The notes: a model not told the origin generated them from the sequence alone. Shown: positions 8,517 to 35,979, numbered from the stretch's first letter. The stretch is DNA of 35,979 nucleotides from Deltaproteobacteria bacterium (GCA_016218785.1 JACRCY010000056.1:1-35979); one strand, 5' to 3'. Numbers and translations are program-made.

Positions 8517-9878
8517 CTAGCCGCGCACCTCGTACGACTGGCCCCCGGCCCCGGCGGCAGCCACGATCTCGGCGCGGCGCAGCTCGTTGCTCATCCGCTC
8601 GACCAGGTTGACCAGCCCACGGAAGAACAGGAAGGGGCGTTCCTCGAGGACATGCGTGAAGTAGGAGGGGAACCCCAGCTCCAGCACCGCGGCCCGGATC
8701 GCGCGTGGGGGGTAGCCGATGCTGTTGGTCACGAGCAGGTCGCAGCGGCCCTGACCGACGAGCGCCATGGTGTCCCGCTCGAGGGCCCGTTGGGTCGGGT
8801 CGATCACCACGCCTGCCTCGCCGATCCGTGCGAGCAGCTCGCGCGCGTGCACCCGGCGGCAAAGCACGAAATGGCGCTCGAGCCGCAGGCCCAGCTCCTC
8901 GGCCACCGGCTCGAAGGCGAGGGCGAGGTGGGGATCGCCCACGAAGACGAGCGTGCGGTGCAGCAGGTAGTGGGGCACCGCCCACTCGATCTTGGGCACC
9001 GCGTGCTGCAGCTCGGCGTCGGTCACGGCCGCGAGGCGGCCGCCCCGCCCGAGCGCCTCGGCGACCTGCGCGAGCCACCGCTCGCTGCCGTGGAGCCCGA
9101 GGGGGAGGCCGGTCTCGACGAGCGGCACCTGGAGGCGCTCCGCCAGGATCCGGGCCGCGTCCCGCGCGTAGGGCAGCGAGACGATGGCCGACGCGTGGCG
9201 CACCGCGCGCAGGTCGGCCACCGAGCCACCCGAGAGCCACACCGAGCCCAGGCGCAGGCCGAGCGCCGCCAGCAGCCGCCGCAGCTCGGCGAGGTTGCCG
9301 CGGTGGTCACCCTCGGCCCGGTCCATGAGGTAGCCGACCACGGCCACGTTGCCGCCTTTCGGCTTGTGACCGTCGAGGTCGATGACGCGCGCGAGCACCT
9401 TGAGCGTGTCGGCGAAGCCGTCGAGCCAGTCGCCGGTGAGCCCGTTGCCCGGCACGTTCACGACCGGCTTCCCGATCTCGAGGCTCACGGGGCGCGTCAG
9501 CCGGTCGTAGTCGACGCCGGTGATGGTGGCCATGGGCATCGAGGTCACGAAGACGGCCCCGGCCCCCGAGTACGAGGCCAGCTCCTTGAGCATCCCTCCG
9601 ACCTGGTCGTCGCGGGCGGCGACGATCTTCCAGGGGTGGAGGTCGGTGTTGGCCACGCGGTGGATGCCGTCGACGCTGGTCAGCGTGGAGAACCAGTCGT
9701 GGTTGCTCTGGAGGTACTGGGTCTTGAGGTGGGCGCAGTCGGGCGCGTCGACCAGGAGGTACGCGTCGCTGATCGCGTTGACCGCGAGGTAGCAGCCGAT
9801 CGTGAACGAGAGCGAGACGCGGCCCGAGTAGTCCACCTCGGTCGTGGGGGCCGCCATCGGGTTCTGGGGGGCGCTCAC
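8517..9878 (-). CDS. nitrogenase component-1-like subunit (NifK/NifN/BchB-type)
   Basis: Oxidoreductase-nitrogenase architecture: LVDAPDCAHLKTQY, TDL....V...DDQVGGMLKEL, AVFVTSMPMATITGVDYD, VAVVGY and three Rossmann-like segments. GTG 9878 overlaps the upstream stop (GTGA). Alternative starts are ATG 9857 or the track start 9989, which would overlap the previous gene by 115 nt. Confidence 0.75.
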   Translation of the reverse strand: MSAPQNPMAAPTTEVDYSGRVSLSFTIGCYLAVNAISDAYLLVDAPDCAHLKTQYLQSNHDWFSTLTSVDGIHRVANTDLHPWKIVAARDDQVGGMLKELASYSGAGAVFVTSMPMATITGVDYDRLTRPVSLEIGKPVVNVPGNGLTGDWLDGFADTLKVLARVIDLDGHKPKGGNVAVVGYLMDRAEGDHRGNLAELRRLLAALGLRLGSVWLSGGSVADLRAVRHASAIVSLPYARDAARILAERLQVPLVETGLPLGLHGSERWLAQVAEALGRGGRLAAVTDAELQHAVPKIEWAVPHYLLHRTLVFVGDPHLALAFEPVAEELGLRLERHFVLCRRVHARELLARIGEAGVVIDPTQRALERDTMALVGQGRCDLLVTNSIGYPPRAIRAAVLELGFPSYFTHVLEERPFLFFRGLVNLVERMSNELRRAEIVAAAGAGGQSYEVRG

Positions 9879-11812
9879 GACCGCCGCTCCCTGGCCGGGC
9901 GCGGCGCCCTGGCCGGCCGTGGGGCCTGCGCCGGCCGCGCGGTGCCCGGCAGGAACCGGTGGTAGCGCCGGAAGAGAGGCAGCCGGCACACCTCGAGCAG
10001 GCGCTCGGCCGTGCGCAGCGCTCCCTCGACGCCCTTCTCGAACTCCTGGAGGTTGAACTGCGCCTTGCCGGCGGCGCCGAGGCGATGGTCGCCGACGTAC
10101 TCGGAGAAGACCGCGGCGAAGGTCCCCTCGGCGAGGAGCTTCCCCAGGCGGTCACGGTCCAGGAACGCCTTGATGCGGTGGCGCGCGGGCTCGGCGAGAA
10201 GCGCGTTCACCTGGGTGGCGGCCTGGCGCGCGGTCCCGCGGTCGGTCACGCGGATGAGCACGTCGAGCCCGAACCCCAGCTCCTCGCACATGGCGAGCAG
10301 CGGCACCCCCCAGGTGGCCGCCGGGTCGCAGAGGCGGTGCACCTCCTCGGAGCCGATGACGAACCCCAGGCGGTACCCGGCGGCCTCCCGGCGCAGCGCC
10401 TCCCACCGCTCCTGGTGCGGCGCCAGGCAGCGCGCCACGACCGCGCCCGTGTCGGCCTTGACCCCGGCCGCCTCGGCCACCGCCTCGAGCCACCGGCGGG
10501 TGCCGGCGAGCCCGTACGGGGCGGGGGGCTCGATGGAGCGGATGCCGGAGTCGAACAGGAGCTGGTCATAGAGGTTCTGCCACAGCGCGTTCGGGTAGAG
10601 CACGTGCAGCGGCGCGTGGGGCAGCTGCGGGATCACCGAGAAGTTCATCTGCGGGATGAACACGGCGTTCACGCGCAGACCGAGATCGCCGAGCAGGCCC
10701 GAGAGCTCGTCCAGGGCCGCGTCGCGTGCGAAGCCGATGAGGTTCACGGCGCGCGGGTCGGCCTTCCCCGCGAGCGCCGCCTCGGCCGCCTGCCGCTGCC
10801 GGACCAGCACCTCGCGGAACACCCCGAGGCTCGACTGAGGAGTGGTGGTCAGGTAGAAGAACGGCCGCTTCGTCCGGCCGCGGTAGCGCCTGACCACCGA
10901 TTCGACGTCCTCGCCCGTGACGAAGGGGACGCAGGTGCAGGAGAGGAACAACATGTTGTCGACGCCGCGCTCCATGACGTGGTCGAGCACGGTGGTGAGC
11001 TTGTCGAGCCCTCCCATGACCACGTCGCGCTCCCCGAGGTCGGTGGTGACCATCTGGTGCCGCTCGGGCGCGGGCGCCGCGGTGGGCGGCGCCGCGGCCG
11101 GGGAGGGCTTGCCGGCGGGCGCCGGGGGCACCCTGCCGATCCGCCGGAGGCGGTCGAGCCAAGGGTAGTAGACCTTGTCCACCATGGGGACGGCGGTGTG
11201 CGGCGTCACTTGGAGGCAGTCGCGGTCGCAGTGCTGGATGAAGCTGCACCGCTCGAAGATGTCGAGGGAGTCGAGCCGGCCCCGCGCCGTCTCCGCGACG
11301 GCGAAGAACTGGTACCACATGTCCTCGGAGGCCCAGGTGCTGAGCAGCGACTGCCGGTCGTAGGCGGCCTGGTCTTCGGGGTTGCCGCGCGGCAGGCGGT
11401 CGCGCACGGGGTCCACGTCGGTGTCCGCGGCGACGAGCGCCGCGAGGTCCTCGATGGTCCGGCTCTCGAAGCGCGTGAGGCCCACCGCGGCGAGCTTGAC
11501 CTCGAGGTCGGGCCACATGGCCGGGCCGCGGTAGTACAGGATCAGGTGGTCGCTCCGGCACAGGCTCGGCTTGTCGACCTGGTACCGGTCGAGGAAGAAC
11601 GTGACGACGTGGTCTTCGGCGCCGTCCACCTCGACCTCGAGGTGGTCGACCACCCAGCCGACCGCCCCCACCCGGGTCTCGCCCGGGCCGGCCTCGGGGT
11701 CGAGGTTGAGCAGGCGCGCGAACTCGGCGCGGGTGCGGGGTCCGCCCGCGAGGGTCCTGCCCTGCAGCCGCCCCCGGTCTGCGCCTTGCTCGCAGGCCGT
11801 CTGGCGGCTCAC
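9875..11812 (-). CDS. nitrogenase component-1-like subunit (NifD/NifE/BchN-type) with an N-terminal shared accessory domain
   Basis: CSFIQHCDRDC, TTDLGERDVVMGGLDKL, NMLFLSCTCVPFVTGEDVESV and VNLIGF. A Pro/Ala-rich insertion (PPAPAGKPSPAAAPPTAAPAP) is present. GTG 11812 overlaps the NifH-like stop (GTGA). This start is supported by homology of residues ~28-116 (11465-11731) to the shared domain; an internal ATG at 11518 would cut that domain. Confidence 0.72.
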   Translation of the reverse strand: MSRQTACEQGADRGRLQGRTLAGGPRTRAEFARLLNLDPEAGPGETRVGAVGWVVDHLEVEVDGAEDHVVTFFLDRYQVDKPSLCRSDHLILYYRGPAMWPDLEVKLAAVGLTRFESRTIEDLAALVAADTDVDPVRDRLPRGNPEDQAAYDRQSLLSTWASEDMWYQFFAVAETARGRLDSLDIFERCSFIQHCDRDCLQVTPHTAVPMVDKVYYPWLDRLRRIGRVPPAPAGKPSPAAAPPTAAPAPERHQMVTTDLGERDVVMGGLDKLTTVLDHVMERGVDNMLFLSCTCVPFVTGEDVESVVRRYRGRTKRPFFYLTTTPQSSLGVFREVLVRQRQAAEAALAGKADPRAVNLIGFARDAALDELSGLLGDLGLRVNAVFIPQMNFSVIPQLPHAPLHVLYPNALWQNLYDQLLFDSGIRSIEPPAPYGLAGTRRWLEAVAEAAGVKADTGAVVARCLAPHQERWEALRREAAGYRLGFVIGSEEVHRLCDPAATWGVPLLAMCEELGFGLDVLIRVTDRGTARQAATQVNALLAEPARHRIKAFLDRDRLGKLLAEGTFAAVFSEYVGDHRLGAAGKAQFNLQEFEKGVEGALRTAERLLEVCRLPLFRRYHRFLPGTARPAQAPRPARAPRPARERRS

Positions 11813-12630
11813 GCGCGGCCCTGCAAGAAGGCGAAGAACTCGTCGTCGGTCATGGTCTTGGGCGGCCCTATCGTGCTGGGGTCGAGGGCGAGGGCCTCGT
11901 CGGCGAGCGAGCGCACCGACCGGGCGAAGACCGAATCGGGGGCCCACTCGACGACGGTGCGGCGTTCCTTCTCGGCGGCGATCACGTCCGGGTCGTGCGG
12001 CAGGAATTGCGCGATCCGCGTCCCCAGCCGCGCCGCGAACCGCGCGAGCAGGTCGCGGTCCGTGTCGGGGAGGCACGAGTTGGCGATGATCCCGCCGAGC
12101 ACCACGCCGTTCGCGGCGTAGCGGCGGACGGCCCGCGTGATGTTGTTCGCCGCGTACAGCGACATGGGCTGCTCCGACACCACGATGTAGACCTTGCGCG
12201 CGAACCCGAGGCGGAGCGGCGCGGCGAAGCCGCCGCACACCACGTCACCGAGGACGTCGAAGACGACCACGTCGTAGATGCCGTTGGAGAGCACCCCCTG
12301 CTCGTCGAGGAACTCGATGGTCCGCGCCACGCCGCGGCCGGCGCAGCCGGTGCCCGGATCGGGGCCGCCGGCCTCGACGCAGTCGAGCCCGTGCCGGCCG
12401 CGGTTGATGATGGTCGCCACCGAGAGCGAGTCGGGGTCCTGGCCGATGAGGTCCATGACCGTCGCCAGGCGCCCCGAGTCGATCAACCTGATCGCGGAGT
12501 CGCGCTTGGGGTCGCAGCCCACGTGGAGCACGCGCTTCCCCGCCATGCCGTAGCACGCGCTGAGGTTGGTGGCGATCACCGACTTGCCGATGCCACCCTT
12601 GCCGTAGATCGCGATCTGTTCCACGTTCAC
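11809..12630 (-). CDS. NifH/BchL/CfbC-family ATPase (nitrogenase-like Fe protein)
   Basis: P-loop IYGKGGIGKS and switch I CDPKRDS. Both 4Fe-4S ligand contexts are present (GTGCAGRGV and FDVLGDVVCGGFA), followed by YIVVSEQPMSLYAANNI. GTG start. Confidence 0.92.
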   Translation of the reverse strand: MNVEQIAIYGKGGIGKSVIATNLSACYGMAGKRVLHVGCDPKRDSAIRLIDSGRLATVMDLIGQDPDSLSVATIINRGRHGLDCVEAGGPDPGTGCAGRGVARTIEFLDEQGVLSNGIYDVVVFDVLGDVVCGGFAAPLRLGFARKVYIVVSEQPMSLYAANNITRAVRRYAANGVVLGGIIANSCLPDTDRDLLARFAARLGTRIAQFLPHDPDVIAAEKERRTVVEWAPDSVFARSVRSLADEALALDPSTIGPPKTMTDDEFFAFLQGRA

Positions 12631-12795: not shown

Positions 12796-14352
12796 ATGTG
12801 GCTCCGCCCCTCCCTGCTCCCGGTGCTGGTCACGCTGGCCCTGGTCGGCGCGGCAGCAGGCTGCCACCGAGCCGGAAACGCGGCCCCGGCGCCCGGCGAC
12901 GCCGGGCCGTGCCTCGTGGACGCGGCTCCGGCGGAACCGGCGCCGACCCCGCCACGCTTCGACGTCGAGGGGCGCTTCCGTCCGGTCCAGTTCGACCTCA
13001 AGGCCGCCCGCGAGACCCGTGACCTCGGGCTGACCGAGCTGCCTGGCGCCGCGCGCGTGGTCGACGGAGTGGCCGTTCGCGAGATCAGGTTCCTTTCCTC
13101 TTCGTGGGACGCCACCGGCCGCGTCCGCCCGATCCGCATCCAGGGCTACCTCGCCATCCCGCCTGGCGCCTACCCCGAGCACACCAAGCCCGCCGTCATC
13201 CTCGCCCATGGGCTCGGCTGGCATGGGACCGCGCAGGAGGCCGTAGAGGTCTGCCGCAACATCGACGTGGTGGCGCTCTCGATCTCCGCACCCGGCCTCG
13301 GCGGATCGGAGGGCGTGGGCGTGACCCCCCAGGAGCCGCGGCCGCTCTTCGCGACGGTGCCCGACATCCGCCAGAGCTGGCTCTACGCCTACGTCTACAC
13401 GATCCTGCGCGCCGTCACCCTGGTCCAGACGTTGCCGCAGACCGACCCTCGCGGGATCGTCCTCAGCGGCGTCAGCATGGGCGGCGTCTCCAGCCTGGTC
13501 GCCGGCGGCGTCGACGATCGCATCCGCGGCGTCATGGTCCTGAGCGCGGCGGGTGGCTTCGAGGACGCGGAGCGCCAGGGCGCCTGGTGGCGGCGCCTCG
13601 TGGCCTCGTCGGCCGGCTTGAAGCCCGGGGATCCGGCCGCGCAGGCGCTCTTCAAATCGCTCGACCCGCTGGGGTACGCCCCGCGTCAGCACGGCGCCGT
13701 GTTCATGGTCGTCGGTGCGCAGGACGAGTTCTTCCCGATCGACCGGGTCATCTCCACCTACGAAGCGATCCGCGCGCCGGCGAAGTCCCTGGAGGTGGTC
13801 GCCGACTACGACCACAGCTGGTACTTCGGCTCGGGCTGCCCGGCCCGCTGCATGCCAGGGGCGCGGCCCCGGCCGAAGGAGTGCCCAGCGGCACCCACGT
13901 GCCCGACGCGGTGCCCGCCACGTGCGAAGCCACCCTACTGCGGCCCTCAGGGGAGCTACAACAACCAGGACAACTTCATTCCCCGGTGGGCGCTCCTGCT
14001 CCGGTCCCTCGTCGCGCAGCACGCCGCACAGCCGCCACGGCCATTCAGCCCGCCGCCCGGCGTGCCGACCGTGGAACGGCGGCCGCGCGACATCGTCGTG
14101 CGTCCGGCGCCGGGGCCCGCGCCCAAGGCCGTGCGCCTCGCCTTCAGCGACAACCACGGCTACACGTACGGCCACGTGACGCTCAAGCGCGGGCCCGACG
14201 GCGCCTACCACCTGGGCCGCGGCCTGCCACCCAAGGTGAGCCTCTTCATCGCCGAGGTGGAGGCCGAGGACGGCGCGGTCGCGACGTCCATCCCGACGCT
14301 GCCGCGGGACTACAGGCCACCGGTACGGCCCTTCGGGCCCCAGCCTCGGTAA
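12796..14352 (+). CDS. secreted lipoprotein, alpha/beta-hydrolase (esterase/dienelactone-hydrolase-like) with a Cys/Pro-rich insert
   Basis: Signal peptide with lipobox (LVTLALVGAAAGC). HG motif (AVILAHGLGWHG), nucleophile elbow GVSMGG, later GAQDEFFP and DYDHSWY. Six-Cys segment CPARC..C..C..C..C at about 13828-13953. Confidence 0.65.
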   Translation: MWLRPSLLPVLVTLALVGAAAGCHRAGNAAPAPGDAGPCLVDAAPAEPAPTPPRFDVEGRFRPVQFDLKAARETRDLGLTELPGAARVVDGVAVREIRFLSSSWDATGRVRPIRIQGYLAIPPGAYPEHTKPAVILAHGLGWHGTAQEAVEVCRNIDVVALSISAPGLGGSEGVGVTPQEPRPLFATVPDIRQSWLYAYVYTILRAVTLVQTLPQTDPRGIVLSGVSMGGVSSLVAGGVDDRIRGVMVLSAAGGFEDAERQGAWWRRLVASSAGLKPGDPAAQALFKSLDPLGYAPRQHGAVFMVVGAQDEFFPIDRVISTYEAIRAPAKSLEVVADYDHSWYFGSGCPARCMPGARPRPKECPAAPTCPTRCPPRAKPPYCGPQGSYNNQDNFIPRWALLLRSLVAQHAAQPPRPFSPPPGVPTVERRPRDIVVRPAPGPAPKAVRLAFSDNHGYTYGHVTLKRGPDGAYHLGRGLPPKVSLFIAEVEAEDGAVATSIPTLPRDYRPPVRPFGPQPR

Positions 14353-14439: not shown

Positions 14440-15783
14440 ATGGCTGCACGTGCGCCGCGCAGGACGCGCCCCCGGGGGGGCCCGCGCTGGCTGCAGGCGC
14501 TCGTCGAGGAGCTCCGGTGCGCGAGCGCCCCAGCCCGCTCGGCGTCCGCCATCGGCGGGGTGCTCAAGGTGGAGCTCTCCGGGCCCGCCGAGCTGACGGT
14601 CGAGGTCAAGCCGATCGAGCCGGGCCGCGAGTACTTCTGCCAGACCGCTCGCTTCGGTGTGAGCTACTGCGGGTCCCGCAACCTGACGCCTCCCCAGGAG
14701 GCGGCCCTGGGCCGCTTCACGGAGGTGCTGCGGCGCGTGGAGGCCGAGCTGCCGGAGGTCCTCGAGGCGGCCGTGGGCGTCGGGGCACCGGGTGAGCGCG
14801 CCGCGGGCGACGCGCCCGCGCACACGGTGGAGTACTCGCAGAGCGCGAGCGGCGACGAGCGGTCGTGCGAGCTGCTCCTCCGGCTGACCTCGCGCTGCAA
14901 CCAGGACTGCCCCTTCTGCTCGGCGCCGCCGCCCCACGCCGAGCCCACGCTCATGGCGGCGCTGACGTTCCTCGACGGGGTGCTTCCGCGGCTGCCCCGG
15001 CCCATGGTGACGCTCACCGGCGGCGAGCCCACGATCTGGCCGCACCTGCGCGAGCTGGTCGAGCGTCTCCTCGGGCGGCCGGACACCCCGCGCGTGAGGG
15101 TCCAGACCAACGCCGTCGCGTTTGCCGACCCGGGCGCGCTCGATGGCTGGCCCCGCTCCGACCGCCTCTCCTTCTTCGTGTCGTTCCATGCGGCGGAGGC
15201 CCGCCTGTACGACCACATCACCGGGAGCACCGGTCACCTCGAGCGCGCGGTCGCGGGAACCCGGAACCTCGCGCAGACCGGCTGCCCGGTCGTGCTCAAC
15301 CTGGTCGCCACCCGCTTCAACCTCGATCACGTGCTCGACTGGGTGCGCGCCGTGCCCGAGCTGTTCCCCGCACCGGGCACCCCTACGATCCACTTCTCGA
15401 TTGCCATGTGCCCGGAGCACCGGCCGGGCGCGCTCGACTGCCTCGTGCGCTACACCGACCTAGCCCCGCGGCTCCAGGCGGCCGCCGCGCTCGCCGCGAG
15501 GCTCGGCGTCGACTGCGAGCCCCTGCTGGCCTCGTCGCACGCCGCCATCCCGCCGTGCCTCCTCGACGAGGAGTACCGGGTGCGGGGGGGCTCGTGCGGC
15601 GCGGGCCGGGGCGCCCTGCCGGTGCAGCGCCGCGACGAGGTCGGGATCGAGGACCTCCGCAAGCCCTGGATCAAGGCGCGGACCTGTGCACGCTGCACCG
15701 AGGACCCCTTCTGCCTCGGGCTGCCGCGGCCCTACGTGGCCCGCTTCGGCCTGGGGGAGCTGCGACCCATCGAGCGGACCTGA
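14440..15783 (+). CDS. radical SAM protein with an N-terminal shared accessory domain and a CxxCx5C tail
   Basis: RLTSRCNQDCPFCSA and LTGGEPTIWP. C-terminal CARCTEDPFCLGLPRPYVARFGLGELRPIE. Residues 17-101 (14488-14742) are a copy of the shared domain. Confidence 0.85.
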   Translation: MAARAPRRTRPRGGPRWLQALVEELRCASAPARSASAIGGVLKVELSGPAELTVEVKPIEPGREYFCQTARFGVSYCGSRNLTPPQEAALGRFTEVLRRVEAELPEVLEAAVGVGAPGERAAGDAPAHTVEYSQSASGDERSCELLLRLTSRCNQDCPFCSAPPPHAEPTLMAALTFLDGVLPRLPRPMVTLTGGEPTIWPHLRELVERLLGRPDTPRVRVQTNAVAFADPGALDGWPRSDRLSFFVSFHAAEARLYDHITGSTGHLERAVAGTRNLAQTGCPVVLNLVATRFNLDHVLDWVRAVPELFPAPGTPTIHFSIAMCPEHRPGALDCLVRYTDLAPRLQAAAALAARLGVDCEPLLASSHAAIPPCLLDEEYRVRGGSCGAGRGALPVQRRDEVGIEDLRKPWIKARTCARCTEDPFCLGLPRPYVARFGLGELRPIERT

Positions 15784-15788
15784 GCCGG

Positions 15789-17489
15789 ATGCCCGACGTG
15801 GCCTTCGTCTCCGCGCCCATTGACCTTCACCCTGTCGGAGCCGTCCCGCGGCCGTCGTCCCGCCCGGCATCGCGCCGGAGCGGCAGCCGCCGGGCCGCGC
15901 GGCCGAGGGCGGCCGGCCAGGCCCGTGCCCGGGCTGGCGCGAAGCCGCCGCGCCCCGGGCTGCTGCTCGTGGAGGCGCGGCGACCGCCCCGGCTGGGGGA
16001 CGCCAACGCCGAGCCGTTTCCCTTCATCGCCGGCTACGCCGAGAGTCGACGCGTTCCGGTGCGCTGGATCTGCTTCCCGCACGAGGCCTGGGCCCCGGCC
16101 CCCAGCCCCTTCCTGCTCGACCTGACCTCCCGGGCCCGGCAGCAGCTGCTCGCGCAGGTCGCGGCCTGCGGAGCGTCCCACCTGATCCTCTCCGAGGTGC
16201 CCGCACCGGCGCTGCGCAGGTTCCTCTCGCGTGAGCGGCCCGGGCTGCAGGTCCGGCACTGTGCCTCGCCCCGCAGCTCCTACTCGAGCGACTGGCTCGC
16301 CGCCTGGCTCGGCATCACCGGCGAGCGCGAGGGCTTCCTTCCGGACCTGGCCTCGCCTTCGTACCGGTCCGTCCCTGCCGGCGGCCCGGTCCCCGCGGCG
16401 CCGACGCCCGTGATCGGCTCGGCGCCGTGCCTCTATGCGGCACCCCTCGGTGACAATCCCGCGTATGGCGACGTCGACCTCTCCGGCATCGAGCGCAAGT
16501 TCGCCTGCGCGTTCTGCCCGGGCCCGCCGGATCTCAAGTACCGCTACCGCACGCCTCCCCTCGACCTGGCGATGCGCCAGATCGCGGCCGTGCGCGCCGA
16601 GCCGGAGACGGTGTGGAGCCGCTCCCAGTTCGTGATCCGCTCGGCCGCCGTCTTCTTCGCCATGTCGAAGCTGTTGCAGCGCCTGGAGCTGGAGGCGGCC
16701 GCGCCCGTCTCGCTGTTCTTCGGTTGCCGGGCCGACGAGGTCCTGGCGCGCGCGGACGACATCGCCGCGGCGCTGGCCATCGCGCGGCGCTGCGGGCACG
16801 CCATCCACGTCTTCTCCATGGGGGTGGAGAGCTTCTCCCCCCCCGAGAACGAGCGCTTCAACAAGCGGCTCTCCGCCGCCACCGTCGGCGCGGCCCTGCG
16901 GCGCTTGCGCGAGTGGGAGCGCGAGTACCGCGGCACCTTCTTCTTCACTCGTCATGGCGGCCTGGGGTTCATCCTGTTCACGCCCTGGACGACGCTCGAG
17001 GACCTGCGCCTGAACCTGGCCGCCGCGCGGGAGCTGGGCCTCGAGGAGGATGGCTTCTTCCTGACCCGGCGGGTCATGCTCCTCGGCGACACTCCGCTGC
17101 TGCGCCTGGCCGAGCACGACGGCCTGGTCGACCCCTCCGCCGCGCAGGATCGGGCGCTGTTCGAATGGCTCCAGCGGCACTGCGACCCGGGATGCCGCCG
17201 ATTCTTCGAGGAGCAGGACCGCCCGTGGCGCTTCCGCGAGGCCGTCACCGCGCGGGTCTGCGCCATCACCGTGCGGATGGCGAAGCTCGACGCCATCGTC
17301 GAGGACGACCCCCATCACCGGCGGATCGTGGAGGCCGTCCGGTCCTCGAGGGTGCGCCTCCTCGATGCCTTCTCGGCGCTGCTCGGGATCGCCGAGGACC
17401 ACCGCGAGGCCCCCCTCAAGGTGCTGCTCGAGGGCTGGCTCGATTGGCTGCGTCGTGCCCCGGCGGGCGCGCGGGGCGACCGGCCGTGA
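15789..17489 (+). CDS. radical-SAM-like (class-B-like TIM barrel) protein with a non-canonical Cys motif
   Basis: SMGVESFSPPENERFNKR and GFILFTPWTTLEDLRLNL resemble the rSAM core of B12-binding/Elp3-type enzymes. The cluster motif, however, is PC-x25-CAFC rather than CxxxCxxC. ATG start 5 nt after the upstream stop. Clear paralog of the gene at 34091..>35979. Confidence 0.6.
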   Translation: MPDVAFVSAPIDLHPVGAVPRPSSRPASRRSGSRRAARPRAAGQARARAGAKPPRPGLLLVEARRPPRLGDANAEPFPFIAGYAESRRVPVRWICFPHEAWAPAPSPFLLDLTSRARQQLLAQVAACGASHLILSEVPAPALRRFLSRERPGLQVRHCASPRSSYSSDWLAAWLGITGEREGFLPDLASPSYRSVPAGGPVPAAPTPVIGSAPCLYAAPLGDNPAYGDVDLSGIERKFACAFCPGPPDLKYRYRTPPLDLAMRQIAAVRAEPETVWSRSQFVIRSAAVFFAMSKLLQRLELEAAAPVSLFFGCRADEVLARADDIAAALAIARRCGHAIHVFSMGVESFSPPENERFNKRLSAATVGAALRRLREWEREYRGTFFFTRHGGLGFILFTPWTTLEDLRLNLAAARELGLEEDGFFLTRRVMLLGDTPLLRLAEHDGLVDPSAAQDRALFEWLQRHCDPGCRRFFEEQDRPWRFREAVTARVCAITVRMAKLDAIVEDDPHHRRIVEAVRSSRVRLLDAFSALLGIAEDHREAPLKVLLEGWLDWLRRAPAGARGDRP

Positions 17490-20131: not shown

Positions 20132-21046
20132 TCAGTCGTCCCCCCGCGGCAGCCGCCGGATGTACGAGAAGTGGTCGGCGAACAGGCCCAGGAAGAGCAG
20201 CAGGATCCCGACGAAGAGGGAGAAGTGCCCGTCGGCGCGGGAGGTCCAGGCGAAGACGTCGGTGAACAGCCGCACCGCGCCGAACAGGATCAGGAGGAAG
20301 CTCACGGGAAGGAAGACCCGGAGCGGGCTGAACAGGGCCACGATTCGCACGATCTGCAGCACGATCCGCAGCCCGTCGCGCAGAGGCGTCACCTTGCTCG
20401 CGCCGGTGGACCTCGGCCGCACCGTCTCCCACGGCACGAAGACGACCGGGTGACCGGCCCGCAGCAACGCCAGCGTCATGGTCGTCGAGGCCGAGAAGCC
20501 GTTGGGCAGGAGGCGGAGGAAGGGGAGCAGGACCTGGCGCCTGATGGCGCGGAGACCCGATGTCAGGTCGGGGATCCGCCGGCCCGCGATGTAGCTCGCC
20601 ATCCAGGACAGCACGGTGATGGCGATCGCGCGGCCGAACAGCCCCTTTGCCTTCCACGGCCGTGCGGCCACCACCATGTCGTAGCCCTCGAGGTGCTCCA
20701 CGAGCCTCGCGATGTCGCCCGGATCGTGCTGGGCGTCGGCGTCCATCAGGACCACGACGGGCCTGGCGGCCTGCCGGACGCCCTTCCGGATCGAGGCGCC
20801 GTACCCGATGTTGTAGGGGTGGCGGATGACCGTGGCGCCGGCGGCCCGGGCGGCCTCGGCGGTGCCGTCGGTCGAGCCGTCGTCGACGACGACGATCTCG
20901 TGGTCGATGGGGAGCGCCCTCAACCCCTCGATGATGGGGCCGATCGTGTGCCGCTCGTTGAACGCCGGGATCACGATGCTGGCGCCGAGCGGCTTCCCGG
21001 ACGGCGGCGGCGGTGCCTCTCTCGGCTCCGGATCGTGCGGCTCCAT
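20132..21046 (-). CDS. family-2 glycosyltransferase, polyprenyl-phosphate sugar transferase type (ArnC/GtrB/DPM1-like)
   Basis: SIVIPAFNE, VVVDDGSTDGT and LMDADAQHDP (DxD), with two C-terminal hydrophobic helices (LRIVLQIVRIVALF.., VFLPVSFLLILFGAV.., FVGILLLFLGLF). No processive QxxRW motif. Confidence 0.85.
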   Translation of the reverse strand: MEPHDPEPREAPPPPSGKPLGASIVIPAFNERHTIGPIIEGLRALPIDHEIVVVDDGSTDGTAEAARAAGATVIRHPYNIGYGASIRKGVRQAARPVVVLMDADAQHDPGDIARLVEHLEGYDMVVAARPWKAKGLFGRAIAITVLSWMASYIAGRRIPDLTSGLRAIRRQVLLPFLRLLPNGFSASTTMTLALLRAGHPVVFVPWETVRPRSTGASKVTPLRDGLRIVLQIVRIVALFSPLRVFLPVSFLLILFGAVRLFTDVFAWTSRADGHFSLFVGILLLFLGLFADHFSYIRRLPRGDD

Positions 21047-21109
21047 CGATGCCTCGGTCGAACCCCCTCCGTTCGGCGAGCCGGCGCCCGCGCCGGAAGC
21101 GCGGAGCGT

Positions 21110-23143
21110 CTACCCGGCCCGGGCCCGGGCCCCAGCGCCCGACATCCCCTTCAGCTTCGGGATCCGGTTGATCGTCCTGACGGCGTGCTGCATGTCGACG
21201 CCTATGGTGTCACCATACCACAGGAGCGACTCGGCTCTCGGCTTGTTCCAGATGACGCTCTCCTCGAGCGCCTGGTCGCGGGTCATGCGCCCCTCGCGGA
21301 CCAGGTTGCACAGGAAAGTGTCGTGCTCGCTGAAGCCGCCGACGGTGAAGTAGATGTAGTTGTAGAAGGAGGCGGTCCCGTCGTCGATCCGCCACGAGCT
21401 CCCGGAGTCACGCGACGACTCCCAGTGGTACTCGCGGCGCAGCGTGCCGACGACCGTCGGCTCGTCCCAGCGAACGTAGTCGTAGAGCTTCAGGTAGTCG
21501 TGCGGCAGCACGTAGAAGGAGACGAACGCGTCGAGCGTGTCCCACAGGGAGTGGTTGAGGTAGGCCGTGTTCAGCAGGTACTCGCGGCCATAGAAGAGCA
21601 GCATCCTCAGCCGGTCGGGCGTGGGGATCGAGTACGCCATCGTGCCCAGCCTGGTGAGCCTGGCGCCGGCGTAGCCGACCTTGAAGCTCGTCTTCTCCAG
21701 GGCGTGCTCCCCGTAGAACATCAGCTTCACGCCGAACTGCCGCCGGAGGACGTACGAGATCCGATAGAACTGCTTGTCGCCCGCCATGAAGAGCGGCACG
21801 GTGCCGAGGTGCGGGTGGCGCAGCCAGGCGAGCACGTTGGCGCGGATGTAGGCCCGCTTGCGCGGGATGTCGGCCGACACCAGGATGTGCTCGGTACCGG
21901 TGCCGGCGCACATCCGCGACACGTTGCGGCGCCCCTCGTCGGTCATCATGCCCCAGTCGTAGGTGAACGCGACCTGGTGCATGCCGAGGACCTTCGTCAC
22001 GTAGTGCAGGGTGTAGCTCGAGTCGCGCCCGCCGCTGATGGCGACGAGGCAATCGGGGCGGTCCCCGTTGCCGCGGTGGGGGCGCACCAGGGCCTCCAGC
22101 GCGTCCGTGCCCTTCACGGTGACGGGGCGGTGGCTGCGGCAGAAGCTGCACACGCCGTCGGCGTCGAACGCGATGAACGGCATGGTCTCCGGCAGGATGC
22201 ACCTGGTGCACCGCCGCAGGCCGCGCTCCGGCTCGTACTCGACGTCGAGGATCCTCCGTTCCGGGCCCCGGCGGGCGCCGCCCACCTCGTGAGTTCCCGG
22301 CGCGACGCTCGGATAGCTGGAGCAGTCGACGATCGCGACGGGCCGCGCGGCGCGCGGCGCGCGCCCGGCGGGGAGGCCGCCCGGGCCGGTCGTCTCCAGG
22401 CGGAAGTACTCGGCGCGGGCCGTGCCGCCCTGGACCACGCAGCCGTCGCCGGCCTTCAGCTGCCTGACCGGGGCGTGCCTCGTGAACGTCCCGCCGGAGA
22501 GCAGCCGACGCAGGAAGATGCTCTCCGAGGCGAACACGACCGCCCGGAGCTCCTCGTCGTGGCAGACGTAGAGGGAGCCGTTGTTCGTCGCGAGGAGGAG
22601 CTGGTCCGCTCCGGGGAAGAGCACCGCGATGGAGGCCATCCCCTCGAGGTCCGAGTAGAGGCTGGCGGCGGCCAGAGGGATGGAGCCGTGCTCGGCCTGT
22701 AGCTTCTCCAGGGACCAGAAGAGGGCCTCGGAGTCGACCAGCGCCGTGCGCCCCGGAGTGCCGTGCCTGCGCCAGAGGTCCTGGTCGTTGGTGATGATGC
22801 CGTTGTGGACCCCGACGAGCACGTCGCTGAACAGGGGCTGGTTGTTGTGGTTGTCGGCCGGCGTGCCATTCGTGGCCATGCGCGAGTGGCCGATGATGCT
22901 CAGGCCGCCCGCCGCCCGTTCGACGTGGCCCATGATCTCGCGGTACGGCGACGACTCGACGAGGAGGGCCGCGGCCTGCTGGCTCCTGAGAACCCGCACC
23001 GTGTGGCCGTCCCCGACGGCGATCCCGGACGACTCCATGCCGCGCGATTCGGAGAGCCTGAGGAGGTCGCCGATCGCGCGCCCCAGCGCCTTGCCCCGCA
23101 GCGGGGAGCCGTCAGCGGTGACGATTCCGAGGATTCCGCACAT
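21110..23143 (-). CDS. fusion protein: class-II (Ntn) glutamine amidotransferase domain + WbpG-like N-acetyl-sugar amidotransferase (PP-loop) domain
   Basis: Starts MCGILGI (Cys2 nucleophile), with GHSRMATNG and HNGIITN. The C-terminal half has CTRCILPE..DGVCSFC (zinc ribbon), the PP-loop VAISGGRDSS, then FTYDWGM..GTEHILVSAD. The track ORF start at 23188 was rejected in favour of the MCGI start. Confidence 0.8.
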   Translation of the reverse strand: MCGILGIVTADGSPLRGKALGRAIGDLLRLSESRGMESSGIAVGDGHTVRVLRSQQAAALLVESSPYREIMGHVERAAGGLSIIGHSRMATNGTPADNHNNQPLFSDVLVGVHNGIITNDQDLWRRHGTPGRTALVDSEALFWSLEKLQAEHGSIPLAAASLYSDLEGMASIAVLFPGADQLLLATNNGSLYVCHDEELRAVVFASESIFLRRLLSGGTFTRHAPVRQLKAGDGCVVQGGTARAEYFRLETTGPGGLPAGRAPRAARPVAIVDCSSYPSVAPGTHEVGGARRGPERRILDVEYEPERGLRRCTRCILPETMPFIAFDADGVCSFCRSHRPVTVKGTDALEALVRPHRGNGDRPDCLVAISGGRDSSYTLHYVTKVLGMHQVAFTYDWGMMTDEGRRNVSRMCAGTGTEHILVSADIPRKRAYIRANVLAWLRHPHLGTVPLFMAGDKQFYRISYVLRRQFGVKLMFYGEHALEKTSFKVGYAGARLTRLGTMAYSIPTPDRLRMLLFYGREYLLNTAYLNHSLWDTLDAFVSFYVLPHDYLKLYDYVRWDEPTVVGTLRREYHWESSRDSGSSWRIDDGTASFYNYIYFTVGGFSEHDTFLCNLVREGRMTRDQALEESVIWNKPRAESLLWYGDTIGVDMQHAVRTINRIPKLKGMSGAGARARAG

Positions 23144-25007
23144 CGGCGCTCCGTGCTGGCGGTCTATCGGCCAGGCGCGCGGCGGCACCGGCCCGGCGCC
23201 TCGCTGGCGCCGCGCCCCCGGCCTTCTCGATCAGGAAGTCGCCGATCGCGAGCGCATCCATCCCGGTCCCGAAGAAGCAGCGCAGCGCATCGGCAGGGGA
23301 GCAGACGATCGGCTCGCCCTTGACGTTGAACGAGGTGTTGAGCACCGCCGGGATGCCCGTCAGGCGGCGGAAGCCGTCGATGAGGCTCCAGAAACGTGGG
23401 CTCGTCGCGCGGCTCACCGTCTGGGGGCGGGTGGTCTTGTCGACCGGCTGCATGGCGCTCACGATCTCGGGCGCCTTCGCCGGCACGACGTCGTAGGCGA
23501 CGATCATGAACGGCGCCGGGCCCGGCCGGCGCAGGTACTCGCCGGCGTGCTCCTCGAGGATCGAGAGCGCGAACGGCCGCCACGGCTCCCGGAACTTCGC
23601 GCGGTCGTTGACGAGGTCCTTCATCCCGGGGCGGCTCGGATCGGCCAGGATCGAGCGGCCCCCGAGCGCGCGGGGGCCGGCCTCCATGCGCCCCTGGAAC
23701 CAGCCCACGATCCGGCCCGCGGCCACCAGCCGCGCCGCGGTGGCGGCGATGTCGCGCGGCCGGCGGAACGGGATCTGGTTCCGACGGAGGACCGCCTCGA
23801 TCTCGGCGTCGCCGAAGTCGGGGCCCCAGTAGAGGTGATCCATGGTGAAGCGGCTGTCGTCGCCGCGCTCCAGGGCGAGGACCTGCGCGGCCCCCAGGGC
23901 CGAGCCGGCGTCGTGGGCCAGGGGCTGCACGAAGAGCCGGCGCGCGAGGCCCTGGCGGTGGATCTCGCCGTTCATCTTGCAGTTGAGCGCGACGCCGCCG
24001 GCGAGGCAGAGGTCGGGGCTGCCCGCCAGGCGCAAGGCGCGCCGGGCCAGGTGGATCGCGGCCTCCTCGAGCCGACGCTGCACGGCCCAGGCGATGGCGC
24101 GATGACGGTCGGTGATCGGGTCGTCGACGCCGCGCGGTGGTCCCAGCACCCTCACGATGGCGTCGCCGAAGCGCGTGCCGCGGCTCCGGCGCCCGTAGAA
24201 GAGCTGGCTCGCGTCCACCCGGAGCCCGGTCTCGGTCAGCGTGACCATCCGCTCCACGTGGCGGACGATGGCGGCGTCGGCGGCCCCGTACGGGGCGAGC
24301 CCCATCAGCTTGGTCTCCCCCTCGTTGGGGCTCCACCCGAGGTACTCGGTGAAGGCCGAGTAGAACCAGCCCAGCGAGTTGGGGACGTCGATCTCCTGCA
24401 GCAGCTCGAGCCGCCGGTCGGCGCCGCGCCAGATGGTGATGGCGTTCTCCTCGCCGTGCCCGTCGAAGACCAGCACGGCGCTGTCGGCGAAGCCGGACGA
24501 GTAGAAGGCGCTCGCGGCGTGGGCCCGGTGATGCTTCACGAAGACGATGGGGGGGACCCGAGCGGCGCCGTGGCCGGCGTCGCGCAGCCCGACGACGATC
24601 TTCTCGGTCAAGGCCCGGGGGTGGAAGCTGGCGAGGCTGCGGATGCCGGCGGCCACGGCCGAGCCCAGCGCCGGCCGACCCTCCTCCGGCGGCGCCGGGG
24701 GGACGGCGGTACCCGTCAGGCGCTGCCGCAGGAACGAGCCGGCGAGAAAGAGCGGAAAGCGCCAGCGATACGCGGTCGCGTCCCAGCCAAACGCGATGGC
24801 GTCGACGCCGTCGAGGCGGAGCCCGGCGCGCGCGAGGCAGAAGCGGACCGCGTGGCTGGGGAAGTAGCCCCAGGCCTGCTTGACGCGGACGAAGCGCTCT
24901 TCCTCGGCGAAGGCGACCAGCCGACCGTTCTGCAGCAGGCAGGCGGCGGGCTGGCCACCGGTATCCGACGCGATGAGGCCGAGTACGTTCACCGTGGCGG
25001 TCCGCAT
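23112..25007 (-). CDS. carbamoyltransferase (NodU/CmcH/TobZ family)
   Basis: VLGL...DTGGQPAACLL.NG, FVKHHRAHAASAFYSSGF, GETKLMGLAPYG, LAGGVALNCKMNG, QPLAHDAGSALGAA, GRMEAGPRALGGRSILADP and NTSFNVKGEPIV. Its 3' end overlaps the next gene's start by 32 nt. Confidence 0.9.
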   Translation of the reverse strand: MRTATVNVLGLIASDTGGQPAACLLQNGRLVAFAEEERFVRVKQAWGYFPSHAVRFCLARAGLRLDGVDAIAFGWDATAYRWRFPLFLAGSFLRQRLTGTAVPPAPPEEGRPALGSAVAAGIRSLASFHPRALTEKIVVGLRDAGHGAARVPPIVFVKHHRAHAASAFYSSGFADSAVLVFDGHGEENAITIWRGADRRLELLQEIDVPNSLGWFYSAFTEYLGWSPNEGETKLMGLAPYGAADAAIVRHVERMVTLTETGLRVDASQLFYGRRSRGTRFGDAIVRVLGPPRGVDDPITDRHRAIAWAVQRRLEEAAIHLARRALRLAGSPDLCLAGGVALNCKMNGEIHRQGLARRLFVQPLAHDAGSALGAAQVLALERGDDSRFTMDHLYWGPDFGDAEIEAVLRRNQIPFRRPRDIAATAARLVAAGRIVGWFQGRMEAGPRALGGRSILADPSRPGMKDLVNDRAKFREPWRPFALSILEEHAGEYLRRPGPAPFMIVAYDVVPAKAPEIVSAMQPVDKTTRPQTVSRATSPRFWSLIDGFRRLTGIPAVLNTSFNVKGEPIVCSPADALRCFFGTGMDALAIGDFLIEKAGGAAPARRRAGAAARLADRPPARSADVRNPRNRHR

Positions 25008-25257
25008 ATCGAGTCTACCGACGGTGCGCAGCCCATGTCAAACACACGCCCCGGGCTGGCAGGGTGGACGGCGTCGTTCGGCGCCGTTCCGGGGGATTTG
25101 TGATTCCCTCGCGGCACGTCTATCATGGCAACGAGTCGACGTTGGCCGGGCGGCTGAGACAGAGTCAGGGGGCCCCGCCAGCGGGGACCGTGGGAGACGA
25201 GTGACGCCGGGGAGTTGTCCGGCGCCGGTTTCGGGGCTTGGTTGTTGGGGGTTGGAG

Positions 25258-26982: not shown

Positions 26983-26997
26983 GCCAGACGTGGCCTA
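26980..26997. terminator. perfect 7-bp inverted repeat that contains both convergent stop codons
   Basis: TAGGCCA-GACG-TGGCCTA. TAG 26980-26982 is the stop of the + gene and CTA 26995-26997 is the stop (TAG) of the - gene. The two genes are only 12 nt apart. Confidence 0.35.
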
Positions 26998-32899: not shown

Positions 32900-32906
32900 G
32901 CGCGGC

Positions 32907-33932
32907 TCAGCGCTCGCCCGGCGACGGGCGCGTGACCGGGTGGAACTCGCCCCAGCCGAACTGGTCGACGTAGTTGCGGTAGACGCCGACGCAGATGTCG
33001 TCATGGCAGCACTCGCCGCAGCGCGGGCCCTTGGCGAGCATGGGGCTCTGCACCGACGCCAGCTCCGCCGCGCCCAGGTCGACGCAGTACTCCACGAGGT
33101 TGGCCTCCCAGGCGTAGGCCTCGTACCCCGGCGTCTGGCAGGGCGGCAGCTCCTTGTGGATGATCGGCAGCCCGCGCTCGAGGCCGAGCCTGACGGCCGC
33201 GACGATGGCCGCGGCGGCCGCGCCGATGGGCTCCACCAGCAGGTCGCGGTTCTCGTAGGCGAACGTGATCGGCTTGAGGTGGGTGAAGATGGCTGGGATC
33301 GGCGCGCCGCGTCGTGCGCCGAGCGCCGCCAGTCTGTCGAGGTAGGCGGGCAGGTGCCTCCGGTTGACGCGGGTGACGACGGCGAGGAAGAACAGGAACA
33401 GGTCGCGGTGCGGCAGCAGGTGCTCGACCGCCTGGTCGAGCAGCACGTCGGCCTGGTCGTTGGCGCTCAGCGTGCGCTGGGTCGCCGCGTCGAAATCGTC
33501 GAACGAGAGCTCGAGGCCCGTCAGGCCCGCGTCGAGCAGGCGGCGCAGGTACCGCTCGTACGAGAGCATCAGGCCGTTGGTGGCGATGAAGACGTCGGGG
33601 ATGCCCCGGGCGCGCGCGTGCCCGATCAGCGCGGGGAGGTCGCGCCAGATGGTGGGCTCACCGCCCACGAACATCAGCCGACGGATGCCGAGCTCGGCCA
33701 TCCGGTCGACCCGGGCGCGGGCGTCCTCCGGGGTCAGGCTCGTGACCGGCTCGCGCGGGGTGTCGCAGTAGATGCAGCGCTGGTTGCAGATGTTGCCGAC
33801 GAAGATCGACGACATGCCGCCGACGCGCTCGAAGAACCTGGTCACGTGGGCGGCGGGCTCCGCGAAGGGGAACGGTCGGCGCAGCCTGCTGGTGCTGATC
33901 CGTTGATCGAGAACCAGGCGCTGCGGCTTCAC
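32907..33932 (-). CDS. radical SAM protein (short, CxxCx5C tail)
   Basis: FVGNICNQRCIYCDT, FVGGEPTIW and C-terminal CGECCHDDICVGVYRNYVDQFGWGEFHPVT. Closest paralog of the gene at 4914..5873. Confidence 0.85.
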   Translation of the reverse strand: MKPQRLVLDQRISTSRLRRPFPFAEPAAHVTRFFERVGGMSSIFVGNICNQRCIYCDTPREPVTSLTPEDARARVDRMAELGIRRLMFVGGEPTIWRDLPALIGHARARGIPDVFIATNGLMLSYERYLRRLLDAGLTGLELSFDDFDAATQRTLSANDQADVLLDQAVEHLLPHRDLFLFFLAVVTRVNRRHLPAYLDRLAALGARRGAPIPAIFTHLKPITFAYENRDLLVEPIGAAAAAIVAAVRLGLERGLPIIHKELPPCQTPGYEAYAWEANLVEYCVDLGAAELASVQSPMLAKGPRCGECCHDDICVGVYRNYVDQFGWGEFHPVTRPSPGER

Positions 33933-34090: not shown

Positions 34091-35979
34091 ATGGTCCCGC
34101 GGAGATCGCAGCGGAGGGCGGGGCGGCTGCGGCAGGCGGCGACGAAGCGCCTGATGCTCATCGAGTTCTTCCCGGGCGCTCTGCGCCGGAACGAGAAGGG
34201 CATGCTCTTCCCGTTCCTCAAGGGCCTGGCCCAGGAGTGCGGGCACGAGGCGCTCCGGGTCTGCTTCGGGGGGACGCTGGCGCCGGCGGCCGAGGGCTAC
34301 GGCGGACGGATGCTGCGCGCCCGGCTGGCCGACGAGGACCTCCGGACGCTGGCCCGGCACCTGGACTCGTTCTGCCCCACCCACGTGGTGACCAGCGACC
34401 TGCTCGGCGCGCCCGTCAGCGCGCTCCTGGACGCCCGCACGCCGCCGCCCGAGCAGCTGGTGATGCCGACGGTGAGCGATCTGATCTTCGGATCCCCCGA
34501 GGCGACCGGCATGGCGCGGCCGCACGCGCTCATCTCCGCCGATCCCGACCGGCGCGACTACCTCGGCCGCGGTGCGTGGTTCCTCGACTGGCTGGGGGTG
34601 AAGGACCCCGTCCTCGCCCGACGTCACCTCGTCCCGCACGTCGCCCCCGACTACGCCGCGGTGATGGCCAACGCCGCGGCCCTGACGTCGGAGTCGCCCG
34701 TCAGCATCGTCAGCGGGGGGCTCTGCGGCAACCGGCGCGGCCTGGTGAAGAACCGCTGCTTCGCGGGCGTGGACCTGGGCCGGTTCCGGAGCCACCGTGG
34801 CTGCTCGTTCTGCATGAGCGCCACGATGCCACCCTACACGCCCTGGAGAGTCGACCCCCTGGCGCTGTGGGAGCGCCAGTTCCGCCGGATCCTCGAGACC
34901 GCCAGCCCGGGCGGGGAGACCCGGGGCATCTACGAGTTCTTCGACTACCGCGCCTTTCGGCGGATCGACGAGGTCGCGGCGCTCGTCCTCCGTCTCGGGC
35001 TGCCGCCGTCGGTGCTCATGTTCAATCCCCGGATCGACGAGGTGCTGCACGCGCGCGAGCGGCTGGAGCGGGTGCTGCCGGCGCTGGCCGGGGCGGGCCA
35101 CGAGGTCCGCATCCTCAGCATGGGGGTCGAGAACTTCTCGGAGACGGAGAACACGCGCCTCAACAAGGGGATCACGCTGGACCAGGTGGACGAGTTCCTG
35201 GCCCTGGCGCGGCGGTGGGAGGTCGAGTACCCGGGCGTCTTCATGCCCTTCAAGGCGGGCCGCGACGAGATCGAGCTGGGCTTCATCCTGTTCACGCCCT
35301 GGACCACGCCGGCGGACCTCCGGTTCAACCTGGAGTGCGCCGCGGCACGCCGCTTCTCCCCCACGGGCTACTGGCTGTACTCGACGCTCGACATCCAGGA
35401 GATGGAGCCCATGTACCGCCTGGCGCAGCAGGCCGGTGACCTCCTGGTCGAGCGCTTCCCCGATCGGGGGCAGTTCTACGGTGTCTTCCTCAACGAGACC
35501 GAGGTCGGCCACCTGATCCCTTGGCGATTCCGGGACCCGAAGGTCGCCGACTACTTCGCCATGGTCGTCCGCGTCTGCGCCGCCGAGCGCGAGGGCGAGG
35601 ACTGCGCCTTCTTCCGGGACGACCCCGAGTTCCCGCTGATCGAGAGACCGTACCGCGAGGCGAAGCGGCGGGCGAGGACCACGCCGCTCGAGGTCGCGCG
35701 CGCCCTGCTCGACGTCATGGAGGCGGCGCGGCCACCCTGCTCCCGGATGGCGCTGCTGCAGGAGGTGATCGCCCGCATCGCGGACGCGCCGCGGCCGGCG
35801 CCGGAGGCCCGCGCCGCCGCGCCGGCGCGCTCCCTCTCCCCGATCGCCGGGACCGTCGCGCGGGTGGTCGAACGGCTCGTCCGGGACGGCCCCGTGACCG
35901 TCCCGGGGGTGAAGCTCCGGGGGATCGAGGAGCTCGGTCCGCCGGACGAGCGGCGGATACGGCTGGCCCGGTCGCTCGC
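34091..35979 (+). CDS. radical-SAM-like protein with a non-canonical Cys motif (paralog of 15789..17489), 3'-truncated by window edge
   Basis: Not in the ORF track because the frame runs off the window. I translated it by hand: MVPRRSQRR..LMLIEFFPG..GGLCGNRRGLVKNRCFAGVDLGRFRSHRGCSFC..ILSMGVENFSETENTRLNKG..LGFILFTPWTTPADLRFNL.. The last ~45 aa (35843-35979) look like the start of another shared-domain copy. Confidence 0.6.
   Translation, partial: MVPRRSQRRAGRLRQAATKRLMLIEFFPGALRRNEKGMLFPFLKGLAQECGHEALRVCFGGTLAPAAEGYGGRMLRARLADEDLRTLARHLDSFCPTHVVTSDLLGAPVSALLDARTPPPEQLVMPTVSDLIFGSPEATGMARPHALISADPDRRDYLGRGAWFLDWLGVKDPVLARRHLVPHVAPDYAAVMANAAALTSESPVSIVSGGLCGNRRGLVKNRCFAGVDLGRFRSHRGCSFCMSATMPPYTPWRVDPLALWERQFRRILETASPGGETRGIYEFFDYRAFRRIDEVAALVLRLGLPPSVLMFNPRIDEVLHARERLERVLPALAGAGHEVRILSMGVENFSETENTRLNKGITLDQVDEFLALARRWEVEYPGVFMPFKAGRDEIELGFILFTPWTTPADLRFNLECAAARRFSPTGYWLYSTLDIQEMEPMYRLAQQAGDLLVERFPDRGQFYGVFLNETEVGHLIPWRFRDPKVADYFAMVVRVCAAEREGEDCAFFRDDPEFPLIERPYREAKRRARTTPLEVARALLDVMEAARPPCSRMALLQEVIARIADAPRPAPEARAAAPARSLSPIAGTVARVVERLVRDGPVTVPGVKLRGIEELGPPDERRIRLARSL

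Follow-up and report, generated by a model that had tools for sequence, protein, structure and literature searches.

Two paralogues with a split cysteine motif in a Group VI nitrogenase-like locus probably belong to an uncurated branch of radical SAM enzymes

Can a protein of the radical SAM (rSAM) type do without the first cysteine of the CxxxCxxC motif if a remote cysteine completes its [4Fe-4S] cluster, or do proteins of this kind serve as non-catalytic scaffolds or partners? The question is raised by a 35,979-nucleotide stretch of deltaproteobacterial DNA (the window), in which an initial annotation had pointed out two paralogous rSAM-like proteins, P1 and P2. The two genes and the motifs discussed below are placed as follows.

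15789..17489, + strand: P1, 566 aa, member of a split-motif rSAM-like family (translated ORF, BLASTP against P2, AlphaFold2/Foldseek)
34091..35979, + strand: P2, at least 629 aa, P1 paralogue; the ORF runs past the window end
16428..16517, + strand: P1 cluster loop C214-x25-C240-x2-C243, with insert motif N-P-A-Y-G-D-V-D-L (family alignment)
34724..34813, + strand: P2 cluster loop C212-x25-C238-x2-C241 (family alignment)
16815..16994, + strand: P1 core, with beta4 motif SMGVESFS..ENERFNK and beta5 motif GFILFTPWTT, which hardly vary across the family
35117..35308, + strand: P2 core motifs SMGVENFS..ENTRLNK and GFILFTPWTT (family alignment)

The paralogy is directly supported. The peptide pairs on which it had first been proposed, SMGVESFSPPENERFNKR / SMGVENFSETENTRLNKG and GFILFTPWTTLEDLRLNL / GFILFTPWTTPADLRFNL, were recovered in the two translated ORFs, and BLASTP aligned P1 with P2 at 31% identity over ~400 aa (E 4e-33). 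Both ORFs are intact and carry a strong coding signal in GC3 frame analysis. Window GC is 72%; a Streptomyces or natural-product reading of this composition was dropped, the homologues being Elusimicrobia and Myxococcota MAG proteins. Start candidates for P1 are ATG at 15789 and GTG at 15798; the database gene call, GTG at 15969, drops a conserved first strand, 'LLLVE', that all homologues keep. The domain order of P1 is an N-terminal Rossmann-like domain, an rSAM core and a C-terminal helical domain; P2, whose full-length relatives measure ~640–700 aa, has one more module at its C-terminus, which is missing from P1.

Scanning of the whole translated sequences revealed no CxxxCxxC anywhere in P1 or P2, in line with the reported absence of the first cysteine of that motif. 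Each protein has a single C-[AS]-F-C whose first Cys is preceded, exactly 26 positions earlier, by another Cys. When 244 domain instances from 249 proteins were aligned to a family profile, all three motif cysteines were kept in 244/244, and the proposed conservation of a Cys 25 residues before the CxxC thus held throughout; the invariance of the triad in so many aligned domains puts the C-x25-C-x2-C pattern far beyond chance. Cys1–Cys2 spacing varies from 22 to 35 residues with a mode of 25 (148 cases), and the F between Cys2 and Cys3 is 97% conserved in the same instances. The insert has the consensus C-x-Y-R-R-x-L-x-x-N-P-x-[FY]-x-G-[VL]-D in the family alignment, and its own motif, N-P-x-[FY]-x-G-[VL]-D, indicates that it is more than a random linker. 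No other conserved Cys was found in this alignment, leaving three, a number that, judged from sequence, would suit a site-differentiated [4Fe-4S] cluster (C-x22-35-C-x2-C, 244/244). An additional Cys occupies the canonical CxxxCxxC position in only 4/249 relatives (for example, CHDGCAFC) and lies six positions ahead of the CxxC in about 6 of 249. The remote Cys is retained in every one of these relatives, and it might therefore have another essential role.

Non-canonical cluster motifs are already known: QueE, with CX14CX2C, is a precedent for an extended Cys1–Cys2 loop, and others occur in HmdB (CX5CX2C), PhnJ and ThiC (PMC4389238). QueE resembles the present family in that the loop from its first to its second cluster cysteine is lengthened at a site that is otherwise canonical, but it is unrelated in sequence and architecture, and the family insert is longer (22–35 residues), family-wide and endowed with its own motif.

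The motif is carried by a sizeable family. A word-indexed search yielded 14 relatives of P1 and 170 of P2, nearly all of them unnamed metagenomic proteins, the named ones being 'hypothetical protein' entries from Elusimicrobia MAGs. A profile built from 78 members and searched against 1.84 billion cluster representatives retrieved 1123 proteins at E<=1e-3 and 628 (~630 clusters at 50% identity) at E<=1e-30. The 78 family loci found in a scan of species-representative genomes belong to Myxococcota (Polyangia, Anaeromyxobacter, Bradymonadales), Elusimicrobia, Oligoflexales and Binatia; five cultured Polyangium genomes are represented among them. The family is uncurated, being captured by neither Pfam nor NCBIfam thresholds. 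The missing curated match, together with a P1-type subfamily of only 14 close relatives, could be read as a sign of degenerating pseudo-enzymes, in which the motif arose by chance or as a peculiarity of one lineage. We consider this highly improbable, as 244/244 conservation over several phyla contradicts it, and the intact ORFs, strong GC3 signal and confident structure predictions also count against it.

Links to known families were faint at the sequence level. Pfam gave no Radical_SAM match for P1, and for P2 a PF04055 match of 22.7 bits against a cut-off of 29.5, covering profile positions 9–138 and beginning at the CxxC. Of the models that the initial annotation had proposed for hmmscan, Radical_SAM was touched by 27/78 members, every one below threshold, and B12-binding (PF02310) was matched by 0/78 members at E<0.1. 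UPF0004 (PF00919) and TRAM had no Pfam matches in the family. The NCBIfam CUAEP-tail rSAM and ArsL models were rejected for P1 and P2, their weak C-terminal matches falling far below the cut-offs. A sequence-profile search of the PDB returned one match, MgmA, at a marginal E of 0.015, in which GCSFC is paired with CTFC and GVENFS...NKG with GIESGS...KKG.

The window encodes a class B enzyme of its own.

24880-26982: B12-rSAM (class B)

Against this enzyme as a single sequence, hhalign produced only a 46-column match; against a 40-sequence class-B alignment of its family the match extended over 476 columns (E 1e-3), at a probability of 20%. At that 20% probability, the two N-domains correspond, the CxxC lies opposite Cys2/Cys3 of C-P-L-S-C-x-F-C, GVENFS opposite GLQSF, and ILFTPWTT opposite IIxGLPGDxP. 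The segment between Cys1 and Cys2 is not modelled as an insertion, so the alignment supports the putative motif equivalences without settling whether the loop is one.

AlphaFold2 models built on family alignments scored pLDDT 94.0 and pTM 0.92 for P1 and pLDDT 90.4 and pTM 0.87 for P2. In the modelled core, beta1 (P0001 residues 144–149) is followed 5 residues later by C154, then by a long loop with C180 and C183 ahead of helix alpha1, and then by alternating strands and helices; a beta/alpha Rossmann-like domain flanks the core on the N-terminal side and a helical domain on the C-terminal side. For both models, the top PDB match by Foldseek was the cobalamin-dependent rSAM OxsB (E 9e-9 and 1.8e-9; TM to query 0.44–0.51 over >600 aligned columns), with MgmA (1e-5), MiaB (2e-4), MtaB (9e-5) and then Elp3 and HemN among the further matches. 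The top matches are all rSAM enzymes, supporting a partial (beta/alpha)6 TIM-barrel core and bearing out the expected structural similarity, and the matched OxsB, MgmA and MiaB structures have an N-terminal Rossmann-type domain. The position of the remote Cys directly after beta1, together with its invariance, led us to place it tentatively at the cluster site.

Comparison with these enzymes indicated what is shared and what is distinctive. OxsB (PDB 5ul2/5ul3/5ul4) has in common with the family a Rossmann-type domain, an rSAM core and a helical C-terminal domain, but is only 12–13% identical to P1 and P2, and is cobalamin-dependent and solved with cobalamin bound (PDB entry titles), whereas the family has the split C-x22-35-C-x2-C motif and no detectable B12-binding signature. 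Among class B rSAM methylases, MgmA (PDB 9ccb) is the one PDB profile match, and the relatives of the window's 24880-26982 enzyme align with the split-motif family over both domains and pair with it at the CxxC, beta4 and beta5 motifs; the scores are marginal (E 0.015 and 1e-3), PF02310 is absent in 78/78 family members, and the family residue aligned with the canonical Cys1 is not a Cys. MiaB and MtaB (PDB 7mjw, 9a6d) share the N-terminal Rossmann-like domain and rSAM core, with fold matches at E 1e-4, but the family N-domain has no conserved auxiliary-cluster Cys and neither UPF0004 nor TRAM. The predicted architecture is the three-domain layout of OxsB and class B enzymes and, for the first two domains, that of MiaB. 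The N-domain aligns structurally with OxsB and MgmA and, by hhalign at 20% probability, with the class-B B12 domain. The earlier description of the proteins as class-B-like thus applies to the fold (OxsB and MgmA matches) but not to the sequence (no Pfam B12-binding match), and any cobalamin use would be putative, the models resembling Cbl-dependent enzymes and the sequences showing no detectable signature.

Other elements of the core may reflect SAM binding. The equivalents of beta4 (G-V-E-N-F-S...N-K) and beta5 (I-L-F-T-P-W-T) align to class-B motifs and are 87–100% or more conserved; near-invariant positions (P0001 numbering) are R254, D256, G285, E287, K299, P339, W340, T341 and W420, with G285, E287, K299, P339 and W340 conserved at >=98% in the family alignment. 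The near invariance of these beta4 and beta5 equivalents argues for retained SAM binding. The GGE-like motif that the initial annotation had suggested looking for did not emerge, the family alignment containing no conserved GGE-type motif after beta2; this absence and the persistence of the remote Cys beside a canonical one are the main caveats.

Taken with the motif and the fold, these features make it probable that P1 and P2 are rSAM-type Fe-S enzymes with an extended cluster loop, an uncurated branch of the superfamily that acts beside canonical rSAMs. The [4Fe-4S] site would most likely consist of the Cys after beta1 (C214 in P1, C212 in P2) and the C-x2-C pair 25 residues downstream, a conserved 22–35-residue loop replacing the canonical three-residue Cys1–Cys2 spacer. 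We infer that the enzymes would bind and cleave SAM and carry out radical or class-B-like methyl-transfer tailoring, working alongside adjacent canonical SPASM-type rSAMs on a substrate of the Group VI NflHDK reductase.

The proteins could instead be rSAM-derived Fe-S proteins that no longer make a 5'-deoxyadenosyl radical, acting as TsrM-like polar methyltransferases or as non-catalytic scaffolds or partners for neighbouring rSAMs. The unconserved GGE-like motif and the divergence from Pfam Radical_SAM would be consistent with this possibility, as would the repeated fusion or adjacency of family members to canonical rSAM/SPASM enzymes and the multiple copies and tandem fusions expected of structural partners. 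At least seven family proteins, including a 944-aa Polyangium protein, have a canonical rSAM or rSAM/SPASM domain as fusion partner, and in P0131, P0132, P0137 and P0149 two or more complete family domains, with the Cys triad in each, are joined in tandem. The existence of natural fusions of complete domains suggests that paralogues may act as (hetero)dimers. Over ~630 clusters at 50% identity, the three Cys and the beta4/beta5 equivalents are near-invariant, as is typical where selection maintains an active site. This conservation and the full triad kept in both halves of fusions led us to judge the non-radical or scaffold explanation unlikely and to favour, on the sequence evidence, a remote Cys that completes the cluster. 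The 944-aa ORF of Polyangium jinanense SDU13 (L051, 9455-12289) comprises a C-x24-C-x2-C family domain and a C-terminal canonical CxxxCxxC rSAM domain; four other loci from cultured Polyangium (L046, L048, L055 and L056) match the family core by tblastn over the same part only.

The surroundings of P1 and P2 link the family to a nitrogenase-like system.

8517-9989, - strand: NflK-like (nitrogenase-like)
about 9875-11800, - strand: NflD-like (nitrogenase-like)
11809-12630, - strand: NflH, NifH-like (nitrogenase-like)
12796-14352, + strand: esterase, first gene in the order of the P1 operon
14440..15783, + strand: canonical HxsC/MoaA-like rSAM, the gene of the P1 operon that directly precedes P1
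17486-18376, + strand: polysaccharide deacetylase, directly downstream of P1
18373..20061, + strand: canonical rSAM, past the deacetylase in the P1 operon
32907..33932, - strand: canonical HxsC4/MoaA-like rSAM, divergent from P2, a pairing conserved in locus L002

The NflHDK block (8517..12630, - strand) is divergent from the P1 operon, which reads esterase–rSAM–P1–deacetylase–rSAM with a 5-nt gap ahead of P1 and 4-nt overlaps at the two later junctions; P1 is translationally coupled to the upstream rSAM (stop 15783) and the downstream deacetylase (start 17486). A long - strand ORF (9875-12238) overlaps the nifH-like ORF, and the true NflD start therefore probably lies near 11800. The initial annotation had placed the two copies near opposite ends of the island; P1 is in fact mid-window, whereas P2 appears to come last in the cluster, as its homologue does in L002, a syntenic locus. 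The window contains at least ten Pfam-recognisable rSAM genes: an equivalog-level HxsB, several HxsC/MoaA-like genes of SPASM type, one HemN-like, one B12-rSAM and two MiaB-like.

Several of the other genes merit description. The HxsB rSAM maturase (3289-4842) scores 527 bits against a cut-off of 370, an HxsD-like domain protein (~2828-3346) scores 47 bits against a cut-off of 50, and an HxsC4-like rSAM lies at 4914-5873 (- strand); no His-x-Ser repeat (HxsA-like) precursor ORF was found in any frame of the window. HXS has recently been reported as an antiphage system (PMC13128918). Two peptidase-U32-family proteins (7376-8506 and 30600-32030, both - strand) each lie among rSAM genes; a conserved hypothetical gene (32012-33004), which L002 has as well, comes after the second. 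Tandem MiaB/RimO-like methylthiotransferase paralogues (26995-29453, - strand) have UPF0004 and rSAM domains and no TRAM match. Sugar- or glycan-type tailoring genes (20132-25007, - strand) encode a GT2, a GATase with a WbuX-like N-acetyl-sugar amidotransferase, and a carbamoyltransferase; together with the deacetylase and esterase, they do not obviously fit the tetrapyrrole-cofactor hypothesis for Group VI loci.

Group VI loci are themselves known. Passages on rSAM genes in Méheust et al. 2020 (10.1101/765248) describe a Group VI nitrogenase paralogue with a suite of radical SAM genes in groundwater Elusimicrobia, Gracilibacteria and Myxococcales, and the window matches the kind of NflHDK and radical SAM cluster set out there, with NflH/D/K-like genes among many rSAM genes and with named relatives in Elusimicrobia and Myxococcales MAGs. 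The proteins described in those passages are Pfam-recognisable rSAM, B12-binding and HemN_C proteins, whereas the split-motif family, annotated as 'hypothetical', is not mentioned in them. A 2026 review (PMC13474568) still lists the function of Group VI as unknown.

The association with Nfl genes is recurrent. By tblastn, Nfl-like genes lie <=10 kb from family genes in 29/85 sequences (84 loci and the window): 13/19 of the Elusimicrobia loci, 13/54 of the other Myxococcota/'Delta' loci and 0/5 of those from cultured Polyangium. Single-linkage clustering of neighbours (82 loci and the window) was dropped, multidomain fusions having chained families together. Direct adjacency was seen in at least 12 of the 29 Nfl-linked sequences, with 2–5 family copies at many loci. 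In L083, the operon reads family–NflH–NflD–NflK–rSAM with overlapping stop and start codons; L007 and L030 also have the family–NflH–NflD–NflK order, and a family gene directly follows NflH in L003 (NflD–NflK–NflH–family) and L015. Within 20 kb, L083 (1-21998) has Nfl genes in three separate sets, among them the gene for a 788-aa NifH–NifD fusion. Neighbourhoods of the close homologues P0007, P0011 and P0082 are unrelated. P0007 (L001, 10001-11782), 56% identical to P1, sits among the housekeeping genes rpsP, trmD, rplS and rnhB without an rSAM/Nfl cluster, and a HEM4 (uroporphyrinogen-III synthase) gene lies ~7 kb away.

Such gene orders raise the possibility that, in Group VI systems, the family takes the place of the 'B' component (NifB/MarB/IsrB), either maturing or serving NflDK or being reduced by NflH through its insert. 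The order in L083, L007 and L030 mirrors BHDK operons, and a family gene right after NflH in L003 and L015 agrees with it; moreover, organisms with Group VI systems only have no NifB homologues, and IsrB is described as an rSAM-only 'B' of unknown role (2026 review, PMC13474568). However, the likeness to NifB-type components is one of gene order only: NifB models are absent among the NCBIfam and Pfam matches of P1 and P2 and show no sequence similarity. Loci have 2–5 family copies, the window having two for one Nfl set; neither window copy adjoins NflH, and cultured Polyangium and many Myxococcota loci have no Nfl genes nearby. We therefore regard a 'B'-component role as quite improbable. It is similarly doubtful, on our estimate, that the family is the missing dedicated rSAM partner of Group VI, filling the 'B' slot of BHDK operons, with the 22–35-residue insert a docking surface for electron or cofactor exchange with ATP-driven NflH or NflDK; if true, this would be a new coupling of nitrogenase-type reductase to radical SAM chemistry.

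What is new here is the sizeable uncurated rSAM branch, its family-wide split motif and its specific linkage to Nfl genes. Surveys that rely on motifs or on Pfam overlook the split-motif family, and rSAM counts in these loci, Group VI clusters included, are therefore probably too low. The family insert of ~25 residues exceeds that of CX14CX2C in QueE (PMC4389238) and so provides a natural test of how variable the Cys1–Cys2 loop can be. Together, close linkage to NflH/D/K, in some cases with translational coupling, and the existence of homologues in cultured Polyangium make the Group VI question accessible to experiment.
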